DNA of 64,000 bases from the NCBI GenBank assembly GCA_041586155.1, contig JBFHAT010000003.1:27115-91114 (forward strand), in the 5' to 3' direction. The notes beneath the pieces were generated by a model. It worked only from the letters and a program-made list of their open reading frames with translations, did no database searches and had not been told where the DNA came from. Of the stretch, positions 3,593 through 23,851 are shown piece by piece. Numbering within the stretch: the first letter of the stretch is position 1; every line of letters starts with the position of its first letter. Origin of the DNA: Acidimicrobiia bacterium (lineage in GTDB: Bacteria > Actinomycetota > Acidimicrobiia > Spongiisociales > JAENVV01). Position numbers and translations under genes: made by a program.

Positions 3593-5005
3593 ATGGCGAC
3601 CGTTGACATCGACCTCGGTGCTTATCAGCTCGGTTGGCACGACTCGGAAGAGGATTACGTGTTCAAGCCCCAGAAGGGCTTGAACGAAGACATCATCCGC
3701 GAGATGTCGCGGATCAAGAGCGAACCCGAATGGATGCTCGCGTTCCGGCTCAAGGCCTACCAGCGCTTCCTGCGCAAGCCCATTCCGACGTGGGGTGGTG
3801 GCGGAGCCCTGCAGGAGATCGACTTCGACGACATCTACTACTACGTCAAGCCCACCGACGGTCAAGCCAAGGACTGGGACATGGTGCCCGAGTCCATCAA
3901 GGACACGTACGAGAAGCTCGGCATTCCCGAGGCAGAGCGCAAATACCTCGCCGGCGTCACCGCCCAATACGAATCGGAAGTCGTCTATCACCGGAACCGT
4001 GAAGACCTCGAGGCGCTTGGAGTGCTGTTCTGCGACATTGACACCGCCGTACGCGATTACCCCGAGATCGTCCAGGAATACTTCGGAACCATCATCCCTC
4101 CGAACGACAACAAGTTCGCCGCGCTCAACAGCGCGGTGTGGTCGGGAGGATCCTTCATCTACGTGCCGCCAGGGGTCCACGTCGATCAGCCACTGCAAGC
4201 GTACTTCCGGATCAACGCCCAGAACATGGGCCAGTTCGAGCGCACGCTCATCATCGTCGACGAGGACGCCTTCGTGCATTATGTCGAGGGATGCAGCGCC
4301 CCGGTGTACTCGTCGGACTCGCTTCACTCCGCCGTCGTGGAGATCGTCGTCAAGCGCGGAGGGCGCTGCCGGTACACCACGATCCAGAACTGGTCGAACA
4401 ACGTCTACAACCTCGTCACCAAACGCGCCGCCACCTACGCCAACGCCACAATGGAATGGATCGACGGAAACCTCGGCTCCAAGCTCACCATGAAATACCC
4501 GGCAGTGTGGATGCTCGAACCGGGCGCCCACGGCGAAGTGCTCTCGATCGCATTCGCCGGCGAAGGGCAGCATCAAGATGCCGGCGCCAAGATGGTGCAC
4601 GCCGCGCCCAACACCACCTCCACCATCGTGTCCAAATCGATCAGCAAAGGTGGGGGACGCGCCGGCTACCGAGGCCTCGTACGAGTCGAGCCCGGAGCGG
4701 AGCACGTCAAGTCGTTCGTGCGCTGCGACGCCCTCATCCTCGACGAGAACTCCAGGTCCGACACCTATCCGTACATGGAGATCGAGGAAAACGACGCTGA
4801 GATCGGACACGAAGCGAGCGTCTCTAAAGTCGGCGAGGACCAGCTCTTCTATCTGATGAGTCGCGGCCTTTCCGAAGACCAAGCCACGTCGATGGTCGTC
4901 GCCGGATTCATCGAGCCGATCGTCAAAGAGCTGCCCATGGAGTACGCCGTCGAGATGAACAGGCTCATCGAGCTCAACATGGCGGAAGCCGGCGCAGTCG
5001 GCTGA
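3593..5005 (+). CDS. sufB: Fe-S cluster assembly protein SufB
   Basis: 470 aa. Shows the conserved SufB C-terminal beta-helix region ('[14 protein letters not shown]', '[34 protein letters not shown]', '[11 protein letters not shown]'). Confidence 0.9.
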
Positions 5006-9982: not shown

Positions 9983-10296
9983 CGTGGGTGCGGATCGGTG
10001 CGCTCGAGTCGCTCCCTTCAGGTAGGGGCGTACGCGTCGAGACGGGGGATCACCGCATCGCCCTCTTCCGGATCGACGACTCGGTGTATGCGATCGGCGA
10101 CCGATGTTCTCACGCCGAAGCGTCGCTGGCGGAAGGCGAGGTCTTCGACACCGATGTGGAGTGCCCGCGTCACGGCTCAGAGTTCAGCCTCGTGACGGGC
10201 GAGCCGGGTTCGTTGCCCGCCACCCGGCCCGTGCCCACCTACGAAGTCCGGGTGGTCGACGGCGAAGTCGAGTTGTACATCGGGGATCGGCCATGA
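9979..10296 (+). CDS. Rieske [2Fe-2S] domain ferredoxin-like protein
   Basis: 'CSHAEASL...CPRHGSEF' Rieske ligand boxes. 105 aa, 4-nt overlap with sufD. Confidence 0.75.
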   Translation: MTWVRIGALESLPSGRGVRVETGDHRIALFRIDDSVYAIGDRCSHAEASLAEGEVFDTDVECPRHGSEFSLVTGEPGSLPATRPVPTYEVRVVDGEVELYIGDRP

Positions 10297-11087
10297 GCAT
10301 GGCGTTGCGCGTGGCGGATCTCACCGCGTCGGTCGGCGATGTCGAAATTCTGAGAGGCGTCGACCTCGAGGTTCCATTCGGCGAGATCCACGCCATCATG
10401 GGTCCCAACGGGTCAGGAAAATCCACGCTGAGCCACGTGCTCACCGGCCGAGAAGGCTACGAGGTGACCGGGACGGCGGAGCTGGCAGGCAATCCTCTGC
10501 TCGACAAGCCCGTAAGCGAACGGGCGCAGCTGGGGTTGCTGCAGGCGTTCCAATACCCGGTGGAGGTTCCCGGCGTGGCCCTCGGACGGTTGGTACGCGA
10601 GGCTGCCGAAGAGCGAGGGCTGGCGGACGTCGACGAGCGGATCGAGGCAGCCGCAAAACGGTTTTCGATGCAGGAGTTCCTCGACCGTGCGGTCAACGAC
10701 GATCTCTCGGGCGGCGAGAAGAAACGGTCCGAGATCTTTCAGCTGGCGGTCTTGGCACCCAAGGTCGCCGTGCTCGACGAGATCGACTCCGGCCTCGACA
10801 TCGACGCCGTCCGTCAGGTCGCCGAGGCCGTAGAGGCGATGCGCAGTCCCGAAGTGGGCGTGATCATCGTCACTCACTACAACCGGATCCTTCGCTACCT
10901 CCAGCCCGACAAGATCCACATCATGCTGGACGGAAAGATCGTCGAATCCGGAGGCCCGGAGCTCGCCGATGAACTCGAGGCGGGCGGATACGAAGCCGTG
11001 CGGGCGAGGCTGGGTCTCGAGGCCCCTACGCCACCGGTGCGCCCCAAAGCGGCCAGCGAGTACTTCACCGACACTCCATTCGATTGA
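10293..11087 (+). CDS. SufC-like ABC ATPase (divergent second SufC paralog)
   Basis: Walker A 'GPNGSGKST', 'FQYPVEVPGV', signature 'LSGGEKKR', Walker B 'LDEIDSGLDIDA', 'VTHYNRIL'. ATGA overlap with the Rieske gene. Confidence 0.8.
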   Translation: MSMALRVADLTASVGDVEILRGVDLEVPFGEIHAIMGPNGSGKSTLSHVLTGREGYEVTGTAELAGNPLLDKPVSERAQLGLLQAFQYPVEVPGVALGRLVREAAEERGLADVDERIEAAAKRFSMQEFLDRAVNDDLSGGEKKRSEIFQLAVLAPKVAVLDEIDSGLDIDAVRQVAEAVEAMRSPEVGVIIVTHYNRILRYLQPDKIHIMLDGKIVESGGPELADELEAGGYEAVRARLGLEAPTPPVRPKAASEYFTDTPFD

Positions 11088-16499: not shown

Positions 16500-16781
16500 A
16501 TGGACGACGAGTTCGATTGGCGATCCCTCGGCGAGTGTCGAAATCACGACCCGGAGCTCTTCTTTTCCGGCTCCCATCCCCACGGTGATGCTGCAGCCAA
16601 GCTCGTGTGCCAATCGTGTCCGGTCCGTACGGAGTGCCTGACATACGCGGTGGTCACCGCCCAGCGCTACGGGGTTTGGGGAGGCGTGGGCGCAGACGAG
16701 CGTGCGCTTCTTCGACGCCGGTACGTCGCTGCGATCCGATCCGGCGCCGACTTCGAGCGAGCCCTGGAAGCCGCCGTCTGA
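16500..16781 (+). CDS. WhiB-family (Wbl) transcriptional regulator
   Basis: Four Cys 'C..C(x)..C..C' ('LGECRNHDPELFF', 'AKLVCQSCPVRTECL') and 'GVWGG' turn. 93 aa. Confidence 0.85.
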   Translation: MDDEFDWRSLGECRNHDPELFFSGSHPHGDAAAKLVCQSCPVRTECLTYAVVTAQRYGVWGGVGADERALLRRRYVAAIRSGADFERALEAAV

Positions 16782-16798: not shown

Positions 16799-17731
16799 AT
16801 GCGAGTGGTTGTGGCCGGGGCGACAGGCGTCATCGGCAGGTCTCTGTTGCCCAAGCTGCGGATCGACGGCCGTTCCGTCATCGCCGTGGTCCGCAGCGAA
16901 GACCGGGCGGAGCAAGTACTCGCCGACGGTTACGACGCCTTGGTGGTGGATGCCGCCGATCCGAGCGCCCTGGAGGAAGCCGTGGTGGCGGCGGCGCCGG
17001 AGGTCATCATCAACCAGCTCACCAGCCTGCCGCGGTCACTGCTCAACCCGATCGCAGCCAAGCGGGCCGCCGACCAGACCAACGCACTCAGGAGGAATGC
17101 AGGTGCGGCGCTCGCTGCGGCGGCCAAGGCCTCCAACGCCCGGCTCATCTCCCAGTCGATTGCATTCGCCCAGCGGCCCGGGGAGGGGATCCGCACCGAG
17201 GACGACCCATTGTACCTCGATGCTCCCGGCGGCCACCGGCCCGTGGTTGAGGCCATCGCCGCCCTCGAGCAGGTGACGCGCTCGGTCGGCGGCACAGTGC
17301 TGCGGTACGGAGCGTTCTACGGTCCGGGCACATACTTCGATCCCGAGGAGGCGTATGGGGTGATGCTGCGCCGCCGGCTGTTGCCCATCATCGGCGAGGG
17401 GCGTGGCGTCTGGGGTCTTCTGCACATCGAAGATGCCGTAGACGCCACCATCAAGGCGATTGCCGGCCCGTCCAGCGTCTACAACATCACCGACGATGAG
17501 CCGGTTCCGGCCTCTGAGCTGCTGCCGTGGTTGGCGGACACGATGGGAACCAAGCCGCCCAGGCGCATGCCTCGGGCAATGTTCTCGACGGGTCCCGCCA
17601 CTGTGCTGCGCTACCTGGTCGACGAGCAACCTCGAGTGTCCAACGAGAGGGCCCGAAACGAGCTGGGTTGGGAACCGAAGCACCCGTCGTGGCGTGAGCC
17701 GCTGGCTCAACTCCTCCAGGGAACCTCTTGA
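16799..17731 (+). CDS. NAD(P)-binding epimerase/dehydratase family protein
   Basis: N-terminal 'VVVAGATGVIGRSL' Rossmann motif. Atypical SDR length. Confidence 0.7.
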   Translation: MRVVVAGATGVIGRSLLPKLRIDGRSVIAVVRSEDRAEQVLADGYDALVVDAADPSALEEAVVAAAPEVIINQLTSLPRSLLNPIAAKRAADQTNALRRNAGAALAAAAKASNARLISQSIAFAQRPGEGIRTEDDPLYLDAPGGHRPVVEAIAALEQVTRSVGGTVLRYGAFYGPGTYFDPEEAYGVMLRRRLLPIIGEGRGVWGLLHIEDAVDATIKAIAGPSSVYNITDDEPVPASELLPWLADTMGTKPPRRMPRAMFSTGPATVLRYLVDEQPRVSNERARNELGWEPKHPSWREPLAQLLQGTS

Positions 17732-17766
17732 CGCCATCCGGACGTTGAAGACGCACGATCCGGTCG

Positions 17767-18313
17767 GTGACCGCGTTTGCGCTCGTGCTTATGGTGGTCG
17801 GGACTTCACCCTCCGCCCGAGCTTGTTCCTGCTCGATGCCGACCGCAGCCGTTATGGCGACACATCACGACGCGGCGTTCATCGGTGAGCTGGACAATCG
17901 TCGGCGAGCCGGACGCGACGATGCAGGCATGGCGCAGGACCGTTTCTCCTTCGCGGTCGAGGGTTGGCTGGATAGAACTGGGTCCGGCGGCGGCGGTGTT
18001 CTCACCCGATAGCGGGGCCGCCTGCGGCATCGAGCCGGCGATCGATGATCGAGCCGGGATCCTCCTGGCCGGCGACGAGGCGGCGTACGAATCGGGCCTG
18101 TGTTCCACACTGGACGCCGCACTTGCCCGGCGTGAGCTCGTGTTGTTGCCTGTGGGTGCCCCACGTGTGTCGATGGCGAGCGCCGAAAGGCAGGCGGTCG
18201 GGCCCGGCGGAATGGAACCGCAGCCTGTCGCGATGGGCATCGGCGGCGGGCACCTGCTGCTGGCCGGCAGCATCGCATGGGCGCGCCGCCGAGCTCACTT
18301 GCAGTATTCGTAG
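17767..18313 (+). pseudogene. secreted TIMP/NTR-module-like protein, reading frame interrupted (frameshift or sequencing error ~17900-18000)
   Basis: Frame 1 gives signal peptide 'MTAFALVLMVVGTSPSARA' followed by 'CSCSMP..AAFIGEL' and stops at 18010. Frame 2 continues with 'AVFSPDSGAACGIEPAIDDRAGILLAGDEAAYESGLCSTLD', matching TIMP N-domain '[25 protein letters not shown]...ITLCDF'. Confidence 0.45.
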
Positions 18314-20826
18314 GGCTCGAAGTCCAACTCCTCGAGGGAGAATCCAGGGATCCCCAGCAAGGGCTCGAGCCATCCCTCCATCGCCGAGACGCTTCCGTCG
18401 GAGGTTTCGACACGAACGGTGTTGATCCACTCGTCCCAGTCGCATCGCTCGGTGTGGTTGGCAGGAGGGCGCAAACCGCCCAGGTCGTTGACGAATGGCG
18501 GTTCTGAGTCGAGTAGGCCTTCTCGGCGAAGCGCGTCGAGCGCCGCGAGCTGGGTTTCGTACGCCAGGGCATTGAGGACCAGATACCCCTCGACCAGGGC
18601 CTGCTCGGCGTTGTCTGACGGCAGAACCGATCCCACCGCTTTGTTGCGGATCTGACCCCACAGAAAGCTGTTCAGCGCTTTGGCGCCCAGCCTGGCGGCG
18701 CCGGTGAGGCCCAGCTTGGTGATGACCATGGTGCCGATGCCGCCGGTGGCGAGCCCCACGACCGCGGCGAAGACGCCTTTGGCCAGTGCGATGGCGGCGT
18801 CGCGTTCTCTCCCGTCGATGTATGAGTTCGTCAGGTACGCGTCTACGGTGATGCCTTCGATGGTGCCCAACTCGTAGTTGAGGCGTGTATCGGCGCCGTC
18901 TGGCGTGACTTGCCCTTGGATGGCCTGATACCGGAACGCCCCCACCATCATGAGGAACAGGTCGGCGACGTCGCGGTCCCGATTGATGTACTCCAGAACG
19001 TTGGCCAGCTGGGCTGGCTCCAGGTGAGCGGCGAGCAGACTTGGGCTCAGCTCCGAACTGGCGCCGCGGCCGCCTTCCAGCGTCAACAACGACGCGAGGT
19101 GCCCTTCCATCATGAGCGGGAGCGCCAGGAGGTAGCCGGGATGGTAGCTGAGCTGGTTGCGATCGAGGCCGGTGATCGTCGTCAAGGCGAGCGCCGCGAG
19201 GGCGACGGCATTGGGGTCGTCGGGCTGCGAACCGAGCGTGCCGAGAGCGGCTGCCATGGCGTCGCCGTCATCGCCGTACGACCAGATCGGCTCCATGAGC
19301 ATCGACCAGCCGTCATCGATCCACGGCAGATCGGAGGTATCGAGCGCGCGCATGTGATCGACGAAGTCGACCACGGCGTCGGGCCCGGCCGCTGCCAGGG
19401 CGCGCAGACCGTAGACACGAAGATCCTCTACCGTGCCCCGGTCGACCGTCACGTCGTACCAGGCATCGAGCGACGGACCTGCTCCCGGGTCCGCCATCGC
19501 CACGACGACCTGCGCCATGTACTCGATCAGGAATTCGGTGTCGTAACGTCCCCAATTGAGGAGCACGGATGCATCCATCCTGCCGCTTCGCCAGTCGGCC
19601 AAGTCGGCCGGCCTGATGGTGAGGCCCGGGGCCTGAGTGGCCGCCGCCAGGGCGTTCCCGAATCCGTCCAGGTGGTTGGCCCAGGCGTAGTCGCTGAGGG
19701 GAACGTATCCGTCGAACGCCCTCATGTATGTGTCAGGGAGACCTGCCAGGCCGTCGGGCCCCAACGCATTGAAGAACGACACGGCGACGGTGGGCTGACC
19801 AGAGAAGTGTTCCATCTGGTCGGCGAGCAGGCCGAGAAGGCCAGCGTCGAGTTCGGCGGAGGCCATGCCGTACAGATCGGCGAGGAGGATCCCGATCGAT
19901 GCGTCGCGCGTTTCGGCCGGTAGGTCGAAGGTGTACAAGCGATCGATCAGCAGCCTGTGGTCCGGGCGTGGCAGCGCTGCCCGAACTTCCTCGACCCAAC
20001 GGATCAGATCCGCGCGCTCCCCTGCAAGCTCGACGAGACGAATGTACGTGTCGTTGGACTGCCACCACGGCAAGTCTGCCTGTGCCTCCAGCTCCGAGCG
20101 GAGGTCGCCGATCTCAACATCGACGCGCGCCAGACGCACGGTCAGCGCCGCGATCGGTGACGACTCCCAGGCGGCCCGGTAGTCGGCCGTGAAATAGTGG
20201 CTTGGCAGACCCGCCTCTCGGGGCGAGAGGCCGCTCGTCATCGCGTCCAGGGCGCGTTGAAAGGTAGTGGGGTCGAACCCGACCTCTCGGAGGGCGATCG
20301 CCAAGTCCTCGAGGGTGCCTTCGATCGAGGAACCGACGTTCACGTAGCGAGCGAGCGATCGGAGCTCGGCCAGGCGATCTTGGAGCGCTTCAACCGATGA
20401 AGCGGAACTCGTGGTCAGCCTTGAAGCCAGCTCGTCCCTGGCGGCGATCATGTCATCGAGGATGGGATCGTTGTCGGACCCTGACCAATTCGCGATCCGG
20501 CGGTCGAGGTCCGCCGAAAGGGCCGCCATGTCCGAGAGGTCATCGCCGGCGAGCGTGTCGAACCGCCGAGGGTCGAAGCTGGGCACCGTCACCACCGCTG
20601 CGATGGGATCGAGGTGCTCGACGAACGCGGCCCGCGCATCCAGGTCGGTTGCCCGATCCCGCAGCTCGCTCACCGTCGTGGACAACGCACGGGTGCTGGG
20701 AGAGGTGACGCCGACCAGAGCGAGGACCTCCAACAGGTCTGACGTGGTGCGGCCGAGATCATCGGCATGTCTGCGCAGCGATCCGGCTCGCAATCGCAGC
20801 TCCGCAGGATCGAGCGCATAGATCAT
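18295..20826 (-). CDS. large hypothetical protein (843 aa), helical N-terminus, one predicted Gly-rich TM segment near residue 690
   Basis: Long ORF with high GC3. No recognisable catalytic motif. Candidate own promoter: TTGACA -35, 16 bp before the start codon, and a TAACGT -10-like hexamer 18 bp downstream of it, ending ~8 nt before the ATG. Confidence 0.5.
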   Translation of the reverse strand: MIYALDPAELRLRAGSLRRHADDLGRTTSDLLEVLALVGVTSPSTRALSTTVSELRDRATDLDARAAFVEHLDPIAAVVTVPSFDPRRFDTLAGDDLSDMAALSADLDRRIANWSGSDNDPILDDMIAARDELASRLTTSSASSVEALQDRLAELRSLARYVNVGSSIEGTLEDLAIALREVGFDPTTFQRALDAMTSGLSPREAGLPSHYFTADYRAAWESSPIAALTVRLARVDVEIGDLRSELEAQADLPWWQSNDTYIRLVELAGERADLIRWVEEVRAALPRPDHRLLIDRLYTFDLPAETRDASIGILLADLYGMASAELDAGLLGLLADQMEHFSGQPTVAVSFFNALGPDGLAGLPDTYMRAFDGYVPLSDYAWANHLDGFGNALAAATQAPGLTIRPADLADWRSGRMDASVLLNWGRYDTEFLIEYMAQVVVAMADPGAGPSLDAWYDVTVDRGTVEDLRVYGLRALAAAGPDAVVDFVDHMRALDTSDLPWIDDGWSMLMEPIWSYGDDGDAMAAALGTLGSQPDDPNAVALAALALTTITGLDRNQLSYHPGYLLALPLMMEGHLASLLTLEGGRGASSELSPSLLAAHLEPAQLANVLEYINRDRDVADLFLMMVGAFRYQAIQGQVTPDGADTRLNYELGTIEGITVDAYLTNSYIDGRERDAAIALAKGVFAAVVGLATGGIGTMVITKLGLTGAARLGAKALNSFLWGQIRNKAVGSVLPSDNAEQALVEGYLVLNALAYETQLAALDALRREGLLDSEPPFVNDLGGLRPPANHTERCDWDEWINTVRVETSDGSVSAMEGWLEPLLGIPGFSLEELDFEPYEYCK

Positions 20827-20841
20827 GCAGTGACGTTATCA

Positions 20842-20857
20842 AACGATAATTATCGTT
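20842..20857. promoter_or_regulatory. 16-bp perfect AT-rich palindrome AACGATAATTATCGTT between candidate -35 and -10 of the 843-aa gene
   Basis: Flanked by an 11-bp direct repeat GTT(A/G)TCAAACG. The whole sufU / 843-aa-gene intergenic region is 32 bp. Confidence 0.4.
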
Positions 20858-20858
20858 G

Positions 20859-21305
20859 TCAAACGTTTGTCTGGGTGAGGGCCAGGTCGAGCGTCTCCCA
20901 TCCGAGCAGTGCGCATTTGATGCGGACCGGGTACCGCCGAACCCCATGCAGCGCCTCGAGGTCGCCCAAGTAGCGGCCCGGCTCCTCGGGGTCGATCGGC
21001 GCCTGGTCGTCGGATGTCATCATGCGCTTGAAGCGCTCGGCCAGCGCTTGGATCTCTTGGACCGACCTGCCTTCGACTGCCTGTGACATCATCGATGCCG
21101 AGCTCTGGCTGATGGAACATCCCTGCCCGCGAACGGAAACCCCACTCACTCGGTCGCCATCCAGCGTGAGGTCTAACTCGATCCGATCACCACACAGAGG
21201 GTTGTCACCCTCGGCATGGGCGTCCACCCGGTCGAGAGGTTTGCGATTGCGGGGGTTGCGATAGTGGTCGAGCACCACTTCGCGGTAGAGGTCTTCAAGG
21301 GCCAT
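20859..21305 (-). CDS. sufU: SufU/NifU-like Fe-S cluster scaffold (sulfur acceptor)
   Basis: 'NPLCGDRIELD', 'GQGCSISQSSASMM', 'RIKCALLGWETL' conserved Cys ligands. 148 aa. Confidence 0.85.
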   Translation of the reverse strand: MALEDLYREVVLDHYRNPRNRKPLDRVDAHAEGDNPLCGDRIELDLTLDGDRVSGVSVRGQGCSISQSSASMMSQAVEGRSVQEIQALAERFKRMMTSDDQAPIDPEEPGRYLGDLEALHGVRRYPVRIKCALLGWETLDLALTQTNV

Positions 21306-21315
21306 CGAGTTCAGG

Positions 21316-22539
21316 CTAGTGCGGCCCTACTCCAAACAATTCCGAAGCGTGATGCAACGCATCGACCAGTTGGTCGACGTCCTGTTCGTCCGAATATACG
21401 GAGAACGATGCTCGAGCGGTGGCGGGTACCCCGAGGTGATCCATGAGCGGTCGCGCACAGTGGTGGCCGGCCCGCACCGCCACGTGGTGCTCATCCAAGA
21501 TCGTGGCGAGGTCGTGGGCATGCACGTCGGCCAGAGTGAACGAGATCACCCCACCCCGCCGTTCGACGTTGTTCGGGCCGTACACGGTGAGATGATCGAA
21601 CTCGCCGAGACGGTCCAACGCGTATCGGGTGAGCTCCATGTCGTGATCACGAACCGTGCCCATCCCCAGCTCGCCGAGATAGTCGACCGCAGCCCCCAAA
21701 CCGATCGCTTCCACGATCGGTGGCGTTCCGGCCTCGAGCTTCTGGGGAACCGGCGCCCAGGTAGATTCGTAGAGGCCCACATCGGCGATCATCTCACCGC
21801 CCCCCTCGAACGGCTCCAGGGCCTCGAGGAGTTCGAGCCGGCCCCACAGCACGCCGACGCCGGTTGGTCCCAGCATCTTGTGTGCCGAGAATGCCAAGAA
21901 ATCGGCACCGAGCGACTTCACATCCACCGGGGCGTGCGGAACCAGTTGGGCGCCGTCGACGATCAGGATCGCGCCCGCATCTTCTGCCATCGTCCGGATC
22001 GGTCCGATCGATGGGATCGTTCCGAGGACATTCGACATGCCGGTGACAGAGATCACCGCAATGCGCTCGTCGACGAGGTGGTTCATCGCTGCCAGGTCCA
22101 ACTCGTATCGGTCGTCGAGCGGCGCGAAGACCAGCTCTGCCCCGGTACGCGCCGCCACCATCTGCCAGGGCACCAGGTTGGCGTGGTGTTCCATCTGTGT
22201 GAGCAGGATCCGGTCGCCCGGACGGAGACGCGCGCCGGCCCATGCGAACGCCAGCATGTTGAGGCTGGTCGTGGTCCCGCGCGTGAATACGATCTCCCGA
22301 GGGTCCGCCGCCCCGATGAACGCTGCCACCTTGGCGCGTGCGGCCTCGTAGGCTTCGGTGGCCATCTCGGAGAGACGGTAGGCGCCTCGATGAACGTTGG
22401 AGTAGTACGACGAATACGCCTCCGTCATCACGTCGAGCACCTGTTGCGGCTTTTGAGACGACGCAGCCGAGTCGAGGAACGCCAGCCGCGGCCCGGTGCC
22501 GTTCAGGATCGGAAAGTCACGCCTTCGGTCAACCCGCAT
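21316..22539 (-). CDS. sufS: cysteine desulfurase SufS
   Basis: Class V aminotransferase: 'FSAHKMLGPTGVGVLWG' (PLP Lys), 'RAGHHCARPL' active-site Cys loop. Start likely the internal 'MRVDRRRDFPIL'. Confidence 0.9.
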   Translation of the reverse strand: MRVDRRRDFPILNGTGPRLAFLDSAASSQKPQQVLDVMTEAYSSYYSNVHRGAYRLSEMATEAYEAARAKVAAFIGAADPREIVFTRGTTTSLNMLAFAWAGARLRPGDRILLTQMEHHANLVPWQMVAARTGAELVFAPLDDRYELDLAAMNHLVDERIAVISVTGMSNVLGTIPSIGPIRTMAEDAGAILIVDGAQLVPHAPVDVKSLGADFLAFSAHKMLGPTGVGVLWGRLELLEALEPFEGGGEMIADVGLYESTWAPVPQKLEAGTPPIVEAIGLGAAVDYLGELGMGTVRDHDMELTRYALDRLGEFDHLTVYGPNNVERRGGVISFTLADVHAHDLATILDEHHVAVRAGHHCARPLMDHLGVPATARASFSVYSDEQDVDQLVDALHHASELFGVGPH

Positions 22540-23278
22540 GCGTGCGGAACGCGTCGTAGCCATCCTCCTCCAAGGTCTGGGCCAGGTCTGGTCCGCCCGA
22601 GGTCAGGATACGCCCATCCATGAAGATGTGGACGACGTGCGGTTCGATGTAGTCGAGCAGTCGCTGGTAGTGGGTGATGATCAGGAATCCTCGCTCGGGG
22701 GAGGTCAAGCGGCCGATGCCCTCAGCCACGATACGAAGGGCATCGATATCCAGACCGCTGTCGGTTTCGTCCATGATCGCCAGGGCGGGCTCGAGTACGG
22801 CCATCTGTAGGACTTCGTTGCGCTTTCGTTCCCCACCCGAGAACCCCTCGTTGAGGTAGCGGTCGGCAAATCCCGAGTCCATGCCGAGATCAGCCATCGC
22901 CTCCATGACTTTGAGACGGAGCTCGAGCACCGTGTAGTCGATCCCACTCTTGTTCGAGAGCGCTTGGCGAAGAAACTGGATCACCGAGACTCCGGGGATC
23001 GTCTCGGGGTGTTGGAAGGCCAAGAACATGCCCCGGGTGCCGCGGTCATTGGGGGACAGCTCGCCGACGTCCTCGCCCTCGAAGCGAATCGAGCCCGCCG
23101 TGATCTCGTAGGCGGGATGACCCATCAGGACCTTGGCCAGCGTCGATTTGCCAGACCCATTCGGACCCATCAACGCATGAACCTCGCCCCGCTCGACGGT
23201 GAGGTCGACGCCCCTCAGGATGGGGACGCCGTCGACCGAGGCGTGCAAGCCGTCGATCTCCAACAAAGGGGCGCTCAT
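22529..23278 (-). CDS. sufC: Fe-S cluster assembly ATPase SufC (canonical copy)
   Basis: 'GPNGSGKSTLAKVL', 'LAFQHPETIPGVSV', 'FSGGERKRNEVLQ', 'MDETDSGLDIDAL', 'ITHYQRLLDYI'. Confidence 0.9.
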   Translation of the reverse strand: MSAPLLEIDGLHASVDGVPILRGVDLTVERGEVHALMGPNGSGKSTLAKVLMGHPAYEITAGSIRFEGEDVGELSPNDRGTRGMFLAFQHPETIPGVSVIQFLRQALSNKSGIDYTVLELRLKVMEAMADLGMDSGFADRYLNEGFSGGERKRNEVLQMAVLEPALAIMDETDSGLDIDALRIVAEGIGRLTSPERGFLIITHYQRLLDYIEPHVVHIFMDGRILTSGGPDLAQTLEEDGYDAFRTHAG

Positions 23279-23356
23279 GTGGGTTCTCCGCTCGGGAGGT
23301 CAGAATGGTAGTAGCCGCACCGAGCACACGATCCGGAGCGCTAACGTCGAGAAGCC

Positions 23357-23851
23357 ATGGGAGCATCCGACGCCAGCCACCGGGTCGTCGCCGCCGCCCG
23401 GGCGGGCGGGGTGACGGTGCGCATCCAGGAGTTCCCAGCAGGAACCAAGACGGCAACCGATGCCGCCGAAGCGGTCGGGTGCGAGGTCGCGGCCATCGTC
23501 AAGTCGCTCGTGTTCGAAGTGGACGGAGAACCCGTCGTTGCGCTGATTCCCGGTGATCGCATCCTCGACGTGGATCTTCTGGCGAACGCGGCAGGCGGCG
23601 CCCAATGCCGCCGGGCGGATCTCGACATGGTTCGGGCTGCGACGGGCTTCGTTGCCGGCGGAACCCCACCATTCGGGCACCGCAGCGCTTTGCGGGTGTT
23701 CGCCGATCTGGGCCTCCGCCGTCACCAGCTGCTCTGGGCGGCCGGGGGCACGCCGACCACCGTCTTCGAGATCGCTCTGGAAGATCTGATCGCTCTGGCC
23801 GAGGCAGCTTGGGCCGACATCAGCGTCCCTCAGTCGAACAACCCTCCGTAG
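23357..23851 (+). CDS. YbaK/ProX-type aminoacyl-tRNA deacylase domain protein
   Basis: 'KSLVFEVDGEPVVALIPGDRILD', 'GGTPPFGH' typical of YbaK/prolyl-tRNA editing domains. Confidence 0.7.
   Translation: MGASDASHRVVAAARAGGVTVRIQEFPAGTKTATDAAEAVGCEVAAIVKSLVFEVDGEPVVALIPGDRILDVDLLANAAGGAQCRRADLDMVRAATGFVAGGTPPFGHRSALRVFADLGLRRHQLLWAAGGTPTTVFEIALEDLIALAEAAWADISVPQSNNPP

Follow-up and report, generated by a model that had tools for sequence, protein, structure and literature searches.

A candidate type VII secretion-type effector of the WXG/LXG style encoded next to sufU in an Acidimicrobiia bacterium

The gene and its locus

We analysed a stretch of 64,000 nucleotides from an Acidimicrobiia bacterium (GenBank assembly GCA_041586155.1, contig JBFHAT010000003.1, positions 27,115 to 91,114 of the forward strand), here called the window; positions are counted from its first letter. 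Our subject is a minus-strand gene for an 843-residue protein that lies directly after sufU, together with the promoter and the palindrome in front of it. The best reading of the comparisons reported here is that the protein is a polymorphic type VII effector of the WXG/LXG style, which is a known kind, and that its head and its cis-element are new to the libraries. The features of the locus are as follows.

18295-20826, minus strand: the 843-residue gene, read as belonging to a rare family of polymorphic effector proteins with a WXG-like head in Acidimicrobiia (open reading frame, codon GC content, relatives)
20614-20808, minus strand: N-terminal helix-turn-helix hairpin with a predicted WXG100-like fold, residues 7-71 (structure prediction)
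20344-20538, minus strand: second helix-turn-helix, residues 97-161, with W114-S-G116 and DNDPILD in the turn (conserved columns, predicted helices)
18703-18798, minus strand: glycine-rich hydrophobic segment, residues ~677-708, the sole candidate membrane span (Kyte-Doolittle peak 1.9)
18298-18621, minus strand: C-terminal tail after the hydrophobic segment, residues 736-843 (alignment A1, composition)
20824-20826, minus strand: ATG start codon and predicted transcription start of a leaderless mRNA (in-frame TAA, no Shine-Dalgarno sequence)
20833-20838, minus strand: -10 hexamer TAACGT, of the TANNNT type, separated from the -35 by 18 nt and from the ATG by 6 nt (sequence; relatives)
20857-20862, minus strand: -35 hexamer TTGACA, overlapping the TGA stop of sufU (sequence; TTGnnn at the same distance from the start in relatives)
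20842-20857, no strand: perfect 16-bp dyad AACGATAATTATCGTT, a candidate operator (unique in the window; related 16-mers in family promoters)
20834-20865, no strand: two 12-nt direct repeats, CGTT(A/G)TCAAACG, flanking the dyad 20 bp apart (sequence)
20859-21305, minus strand: sufU, last gene of a sufC-sufS-sufU cluster and a neighbour only (NifU_N, 2.3e-21)
21316-22563, minus strand: sufS (Aminotran_5, 2e-140)
22529-23278, minus strand: sufC (open reading frame)

The 843-residue reading frame is a genuine gene. Because an in-frame TAA lies four codons upstream of the ATG, its start is unambiguous and a longer version is impossible. The N-terminus, MIYALDP, lines up with MAITIDP, MVIKIDP and MIYRFDH in the alignment of relatives. 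GC content at codon positions 1, 2 and 3 is 0.69, 0.47 and 0.81, evenly along the length, and sufU, sufS, sufC and fumC have the same values; composition that is uniform and like that of the neighbours indicates that the gene is real. An independent Logan assembly agrees with the window over 17847-21084, with 1 mismatch in 3238 bases.

An earlier, sequence-only reading of this DNA described the locus accurately apart from trivial counts. The list of open reading frames and the hydropathy profile, which has no N-terminal hydrophobic segment, bear out a large protein of 843 residues that lacks a signal peptide. Its C-terminus is acidic and contains cysteine, as had been said: cysteines are at positions 795 and 842, and the net charge of the whole protein is -66. 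The gap to sufU is indeed 32 bp (20827-20858). At its 3' end, the gene overlaps a convergent reading frame (17777-18313) by 19 bp, where 18 bp had been claimed.

A rare family with exchangeable C-terminal ends

The protein has no match in Pfam, NCBIfam or PADLOC. A word-indexed homology search with the protein, or with a full-length alignment of seven members (A1), returned only the query itself, and the same search with an alignment of the N-terminal head (A4) returned nothing. When 1.84 billion cluster representatives were scanned in full with HMMER, 16 other proteins were found, in which residues 1-170 are the best conserved part. Six of the 16 (784-869 residues) align with the 843-residue protein from end to end at 22-27% identity. 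Where loci of relatives were recovered in the genome collection, they all came from Acidimicrobiia or Acidimicrobiales metagenome-assembled genomes, and every recovered locus is from an uncultured organism. A scan of metagenomes added one duplicate and one partial locus only. The 843-residue protein is thus not an orphan; sequence comparison places it in a rare family restricted to Acidimicrobiia.

Several relatives end in domains that Pfam recognizes. The C-terminal end of P0016 is an EndoU_bacteria nuclease (4.9e-17), that of P0015 is a CdiA_C_tRNase (28.8 bits against a cut-off of 26.5), and that of P0009 is Peptidase_C2, a calpain-type cysteine protease (6.1e-17). In P0017, the end resembles ADPrib_exo_Tox at 22.9 bits, just below the cut-off of 23.4. 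All four have in common with the 843-residue protein only its head or the W-x-G-x-DNDP-x-LD module of that head. Next after P0017 (locus L016, 8001-11449), and on its strand, comes an ADP_ribosyl_GH gene, and the two look like a toxin-antidote pair. An ADP-ribosylglycohydrolase would be the expected kind of antidote, and this gene is a plausible immunity gene.

The W-x-G-x-DNDP-x-LD module is covered by no Pfam model. It occurs as two or three tandem copies in P0010, P0016 and P0017 and was also noted at loci L005-L007. It is also found together with a second N-terminal head of another kind (M..IRMHMGNAE...GQNP.YGPIPAL) and with a segment that resembles a pre-toxin.

Polymorphic toxins are defined by an architecture in which one head is combined with many different toxin ends (Zhang et al., 2012, PMC3482391), and a single conserved head on diverse C-terminal toxin domains, as in LXG polymorphic toxins, is what we found across the homologues. 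The best reading of these fusions is that the family consists of polymorphic effectors of the type VII secretion type. The sequence-only reading had called the protein one to which no family can be assigned. This holds for the curated libraries, but the HMMER scan, the domain fusions and the gene neighbourhoods assign it to the family just described. Pfam, NCBIfam, PADLOC and Rfam contain neither the head domain nor the cis-element discussed below.

The head domain and its link to type VII secretion

AlphaFold2, given an alignment of 13 sequences, folds helices 7-38 and 43-71 of the head into a hairpin with a predicted local distance difference test (pLDDT) score of 94-97. A second predicted helix pair follows (97-112 and 121-161), with the nearly invariant W114-S-G116 in its turn. 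W114-S-G116/DNDPILD is the most conserved motif of the family and the repeat module of the related toxins. The turn of the first hairpin reads LVGVTS, so the W-x-G sits in the second.

A hairpin of two helices of about 30 residues each is a feature of the WXG100 superfamily, and the head is predicted to form one. In a Foldseek search of the PDB with the head, the top matches were mostly EsxA, EsxB, ESAT-6-like and PE/PPE chains (probability 0.99-1.0, template-modelling (TM) score by target 0.6-0.72), with E-values of only 0.2-1. When the N-terminal profile was searched against PDB sequences, the only matches were designed coiled coils and ZapA, with E-values of about 5e-4 or weaker.

Two neighbourhoods connect the family with secretion genes. 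At locus L004, a relative of 1047 residues has the same head (hhalign probability 98.7%, E 2.2e-16, spanning the hairpin and the DNDP motif). It lies just downstream of a divergent gene for a 1449-residue ATPase, which matches the EssC/EccC models at 1e-140 to 1e-95 versus 1e-16 for FtsK. A WXG100/YwqH-like gene of 196 codons and a gene of 138 codons stand between the ATPase and the relative. The second case, at L010, is the full-length relative P0006, 2.4 kb from another EccC-like ATPase (1364 residues). Nearby are an Abhydrolase_8 gene and genes for products of 85 and 101 residues, the latter weakly similar to WXG100 (E 0.026). Thus, EccC/EssC-type ATPases are linked to relatives at L004 and L010; most copies of the family are far from secretion genes.

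WxG, LxG and LDxD heads have been described on polymorphic toxins exported by type VII secretion systems (Zhang et al., 2012, PMC3482391). Taken together, the gene neighbourhoods and the structural matches suggest that type VII-type export of the 843-residue protein is likely. At L010, the promoter region of the WXG-like/EccC-like cluster (10101-10335) contains the palindrome TGACATATTGTCA. The same region holds the 10-mer CTATCGTTAA, which is also present in the family promoter at L012. These elements hint that secretion genes and family genes share cis-elements.

The body, the hydrophobic segment and the tail

The full-length AlphaFold model is all-helical, at a low mean pLDDT of 62.8. The hydrophobic segment, GVFAAVVGLATGGIGTMVI, is the only hydropathy peak of the protein, and AlphaFold confidence is low there. 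A single glycine-zipper-like membrane span near residue 690 had been proposed. The single peak at ~677-708 agrees with this, and its GLATGGIG amounts to one GxxxG (691-695) and a GG pair, less than a full zipper. A late hydrophobic T-G-G-x-G stretch is common to the full-length relatives in alignment A1, and G714 is invariant. The tail opens with a conserved (F/L)P(T/S)DN motif and is then variable and acidic, with a pLDDT of 65-78.

LXG toxins with C-terminal glycine zippers damage membranes, as reported for TelE (PMC10434224) and EsxX (PMC12258717). By analogy, we infer that the subfamily of the 843-residue protein may be either a membrane-inserting effector or a secretion substrate anchored in the membrane or at the surface.

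Promoter and predicted leaderless start

The TTGACA and TAACGT elements that had been read as the gene's own promoter, about 6 nt before the ATG, are present, and their layout recurs in relatives. A strict sigma-70 scan found no promoter because TAACGT agrees with TATAAT at only three of six positions. TAACGT fits the actinobacterial TANNNT form. The promoters below come from different genomes and different neighbourhoods; each line gives the -35, the spacer in nt, the -10 and the nt to the start codon.

Window: TTGACA-18-TAACGT-6-ATG
L003: TTGCCA-18-TATCAT-6
L002: TTGCTT-18-TATCAT-6
L012 (start corrected to 7932, MIYRFDH): TTGCAG-17-TATCGT-8
L021: TTGACA-18-TATTTT-7
L020: TTAACA-17-TATAGT-7
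L019: TTGAAC-17-TAGACT-7
L015: TTGCAT-18-TAGTTT-7
L018: TTGACA-17-GAAGCT-6

The spacing between -35, -10 and start codon recurs in at least 8 relatives, and a TANNNT hexamer lies 6-8 nt before the start in 7 relatives. None of the tabulated promoters has a Shine-Dalgarno sequence; in the window, the 14 nt upstream of the ATG hold no purine-rich sequence of this kind. L010 is an exception, with a leader of ~24 nt and a Shine-Dalgarno-like AAAGGGG. As the same geometry recurs in relatives and Shine-Dalgarno sequences are lacking, a promoter of its own and a leaderless mRNA are supported as a trait of the family. We conclude that the gene probably has its own promoter and a leaderless transcript, for which the start is predicted; the sequence-only reading had likewise expected a leaderless or near-leaderless transcript.

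CGATAA was also considered as a -10 of the sigma-28 FliA/WhiG type. On inspection, no TAAA was present 15 nt upstream, the resulting leader would have no Shine-Dalgarno sequence, and the reading was rejected. Rfam gave nothing relevant in 17000-23500.

The 16-bp dyad

The perfect palindrome had been placed between the -35 and the -10, and it lies there. The direct repeats on either side of it were also found, CGTTATCAAACG and CGTTGTCAAACG, but they are 12-mers and not the 11-bp units described. As a whole, the gap forms a 34-bp imperfect inverted repeat (17/17 nt). With up to three mismatches allowed, the 16-mer is unique in the window, versus 0.04 occurrences expected. Perfect palindromes of at least 16 bp number 4 in the GC-rich window versus 2.7 expected under a first-order Markov model, so the palindrome alone is only mildly significant. 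The weight of the case rests on AT-richness, on promoter position and on recurrence in relatives, and the comparative evidence is decisive. Dyads were found at the following distances of their centres from the start codon.

Window: AACGATAATTATCGTT, -23.5
L012 (opposite strand): AACGATAGTTATCGGT, -15.5
L003: AGCGATAGTTATCATT, -13.5
L002: AGTGATTGTTATCATT, -13.5
L018: AACGATAGTTAACGTT, about -43.5, just upstream of the -35

In 189 kb of non-redundant sequence there are four copies of the core, GAT[AT]NNTATC, and all of them lie upstream of a family start codon, no more than 30 nt away. No further site, in any of the loci or in the window, was found with a weight matrix derived from the dyads. 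The window and L018 promoters also have the 13-mer AACGTTTGACAAC in common. The family proteins that follow these dyads are only 27-49% identical and the flanking genes differ; neutral DNA would not keep the words of the dyad under such divergence. Absence of the palindrome from orthologous promoters had been named as a reason to give up the operator; we found near-identical 16-mers in four other family promoters instead.

From these results we take the dyad to be the probable binding site of a dimeric regulator that some members of the family share. A dyad between -35 and -10 had been read as repressor placement. This is true of the window, but in relatives the dyad overlaps the -10 or precedes the -35. 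For the window gene, repression is the simplest reading because the dyad fills the spacer and touches the -35.

Several family promoters contain ACG(T/A) words at 10-bp phasing. Two relatives have, a few kb upstream, large genes for BTAD/AAA_16 (SARP/AfsR-like) regulators (L011, 363-3569; L020, 177-3728), which are possible candidates for a regulator that acts on phased direct repeats. Together, the phased words and these genes suggest a regulator of another kind. At 20860-20869, a perfect palindrome of 10 bp, CAAACGTTTG, runs across the stop of sufU and the -35 hexamer. Its core, AAACGTTT, resembles LacI/PurR-type operators. LacI-type and SufR-type (CAAC-N6-GTTG) readings of CAAACGTTTG were also considered.

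A proposed model and its alternatives

We propose a model for the structure, export and regulation of the 843-residue protein, and we give the model as a whole slightly better than an even chance of being right. The protein would be a large, acidic, all-helical polypeptide whose first ~140 residues form a secretion-targeting head, made of a WXG100-like hairpin and the W-x-G/DNDP helix-turn-helix. In other Acidimicrobiia proteins, the same head precedes a range of interchangeable toxin domains. Export would most likely go through a type VII (ESX/Ess-type) secretion system whose genes lie in another part of the genome. In place of an enzymatic toxin, this subfamily would bear a conserved helical body of ~650 residues, and the glycine-rich hydrophobic segment of this body, which is followed by a short variable tail, may insert into a membrane.

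The second part of the model involves expression, which would be independent of sufCSU. From a housekeeping-type promoter, TTGACA-18-TAACGT, transcription would begin with the A of the ATG, and the mRNA would be leaderless. A dimeric DNA-binding protein would bind the 16-bp dyad that fills the spacer and, most simply, block RNA polymerase.

A number of observations weigh against this model. The large open reading frames scanned in the 64-kb window include no type VII secretion gene. The Pfam models for WXG100 and LXG are unmatched, the best WXG100 value being E=0.07 in one of seven members. By inspection, no YxxxD/E export signal stands in register after helix 2 (...RAAFVEHLDP; FVERFQP in relatives). 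The full-length structure model has no informative fold match, only generic alpha-solenoids at a TM score below 0.2, and one GxxxG falls short of a full glycine zipper. No member of the 800-residue type has an immunity candidate downstream on the same strand, and in the window the downstream gene is convergent; this argues against an antibacterial toxin. An immunity-type gene was seen only beside the ADP-ribosyltransferase relative. On the side of regulation, L002 and L003 are orthologous and hence not independent instances of the dyad, the distance of the dyad from the start codon differs from promoter to promoter, and the dyad is absent from the family promoters at L004, L010, L011, L015 and L016. 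Finally, the terminator scan found no terminator after sufU, and read-through transcripts are possible.

The alternative that survives best, to which we give a real but minority chance, is that the protein is no toxin but an accessory or structural part of the secretion system or a cell-surface protein, from a paralogous family like PE/PPE or Esp. The lack of immunity-like genes would then be expected, as would a body conserved over its full length in seven members and the two paralogues found in a single genome (GCA_041581135.1). However, most copies are distant from secretion genes, and the head is otherwise joined to toxin domains. This explanation has the same secretion step as the effector model and differs only after export.

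It is also conceivable, although unlikely, that the palindrome is no operator but arose by chance or from the composition of an AT-rich promoter, or that it forms a weak hairpin at which the sufCSU transcript ends. The window has about the expected number of long perfect palindromes, and the position of the dyad is not conserved. The -10 hexamer (TATCAT or TATCGT) of L003, L002 and L012 is at the same time the right half of the dyad, and part of the similarity among dyads could therefore be promoter sequence. The left half, (A/G)CGATA(A/G), is conserved as well, however, and is not a promoter element, and in the window and L018 the dyad is clear of the -10. Chance would also have to place all four core occurrences in family promoters and leave the weight matrix without other hits. 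As for a hairpin, its stem would be 6 bp and AT-rich with no T tract, and the terminator scan was negative.

Quite improbable, in our view, is that the product is a non-secreted protein of iron or iron-sulphur (Fe-S) homeostasis, tail-anchored or peripheral at the membrane, which is co-regulated with suf through a metal-regulator box in the dyad. The gene does follow sufU by 32 bp, and its closest relatives (L002 and L003) directly follow an Fe3+-type ATP-binding cassette (ABC) operon that ends in a gene for a DtxR/IdeR-family repressor. The core, GATAAT/ATTATC, also recalls Fur-type hexamers. Against this, the neighbours at other family loci are unrelated (ClpS, SHMT, heliorhodopsin, PALP enzymes and cytochrome genes), and the adjacency to sufU, which the sequence-only reading had pointed out, is not conserved. 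The same head is found on nuclease, tRNase, ADP-ribosyltransferase and protease toxins. With its 8-0-8 symmetry, AACGATAA|TTATCGTT, the dyad does not fit the 7-1-7 pattern of Fur/Zur/PerR boxes or the 9-1-9 pattern of DtxR boxes, and no similar site stands upstream of sufC. The Fe3+-type ABC operon of L002 and L003 bears a different inverted repeat: directly upstream of it lies the 6-9-6 repeat CCCGAAGGTAGCCTGTTCGGG (L003, 5570-5620; L002, 1040-1070), a candidate operator or leader hairpin in its own right.

Least probable of all is that the dyad is a MerR-type activator site that remodels an over-long spacer: a dyad within an 18-nt spacer, with a consensus -35 on one side and a weak -10 on the other, does look MerR-like, but MerR promoters typically have spacers of 19-20 nt with the dyad fixed at the centre, whereas all relatives here have 17-18 nt and a dyad that shifts to the -10 or upstream of the -35, and the window scans found no MerR gene beside the frame, the neighbours being sufU and the convergent TIMP-like frame.

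Comparison with known systems

The closest likeness is to the LXG/WXG polymorphic toxins (Zhang et al., 2012, PMC3482391; Firmicutes LXG). Both have an N-terminal helical targeting domain of ~150-200 residues and exchangeable C-terminal domains. The EndoU, CdiA-tRNase, ADP-ribosyltransferase and protease ends of relatives are of the same kind, as are the one plausible immunity gene and the copies that adjoin an EssC/EccC ATPase and WXG100-like genes. Unlike these toxins, our proteins match no LXG/WXG100 model in Pfam or NCBIfam, and their head has the repeatable W-x-G-x-DNDP-x-LD module. The 843-residue gene differs further in that it has neither an immunity candidate downstream nor small helical partner genes upstream, and the host lineage here is Acidimicrobiia. 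In a full-text literature search, Acidimicrobiia and type VII secretion were not mentioned together in any paper.

Toxins of the TelE/EsxX/TspA type (PMC10434224, PMC12258717) combine a secretion head with a C-terminal glycine-rich hydrophobic segment and have no enzymatic domain, and in this they are like the 843-residue protein. The body here is much longer (~650 residues), with one GxxxG and no immunity gene. These toxins have no detectable sequence similarity to the 843-residue protein.

WXG100 proteins (ESAT-6/EsxA-like) are similar in their helix-turn-helix hairpin of ~65 residues with W-x-G in a predicted turn, and EsxA/EsxB are the best Foldseek matches. The differences are size (843 residues versus ~100), a W-x-G that lies in the second hairpin, a hidden Markov model match below threshold and the lack of YxxxD/E. 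Pfam DUF6571, an uncharacterized actinobacterial model of 729 positions, is of similar length. P0003, one of seven members, matches it weakly at the N-terminus (E 0.0023, residues 3-70, 16.9 bits against a cut-off of 27), and the literature search found no mention of DUF6571. Last, the promoter resembles those of leaderless Actinobacteria genes: a TANNNT -10 lies 6-8 nt before a predicted start, without a Shine-Dalgarno sequence, and this is conserved in the family.

Implications

To our knowledge, work on type VII secretion effectors has been confined almost entirely to Firmicutes and Mycobacteria. If the family is exported by the type VII route, polymorphic-toxin warfare would reach Acidimicrobiia. 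The head domain and its repeat module, which are missing from Pfam and NCBIfam, could then be used to recognize such effectors, and the 16-bp motif would be a handle on the regulator and on the rest of its regulon. For annotation, a hypothetical protein after sufU becomes a testable candidate for a secreted effector, and the place of the gene beside Fe-S assembly genes is incidental.

A bolder view, which we offer as speculation and think more apt to be wrong than right, is that Acidimicrobiia possess an undescribed arsenal of type VII-dependent polymorphic effectors with a new head. In this scenario, the scattered leaderless genes would form one regulon, marked by an AACGATA-N2-TATCGTT dyad and placed under a dedicated regulator, and the 843-residue subfamily would be a membrane-inserting effector that needs no adjacent immunity gene.

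Neighbouring genes

The SUF genes of the window are split. A SufB/D-type gene (3593-5005, plus strand) lies 17 kb from sufC-sufS-sufU (20859-23278, minus strand), and the frame upstream of sufC is a divergent YbaK-like one, not sufB or sufD.

On the other side, the convergent TIMP-like gene (17767-18313, plus strand) has an ACSCS N-terminus and is split over two frames of 81 and 178 codons. Its codon-position GC contrast is weaker than that of its neighbours, and it lies in the region over which the Logan assembly differs from the window by one base overall. Beyond it, 1.5 kb past the 3' end of the 843-residue gene, a small WhiB-like reading frame (16500-16781, plus strand) shows, by eye, a four-cysteine pattern.

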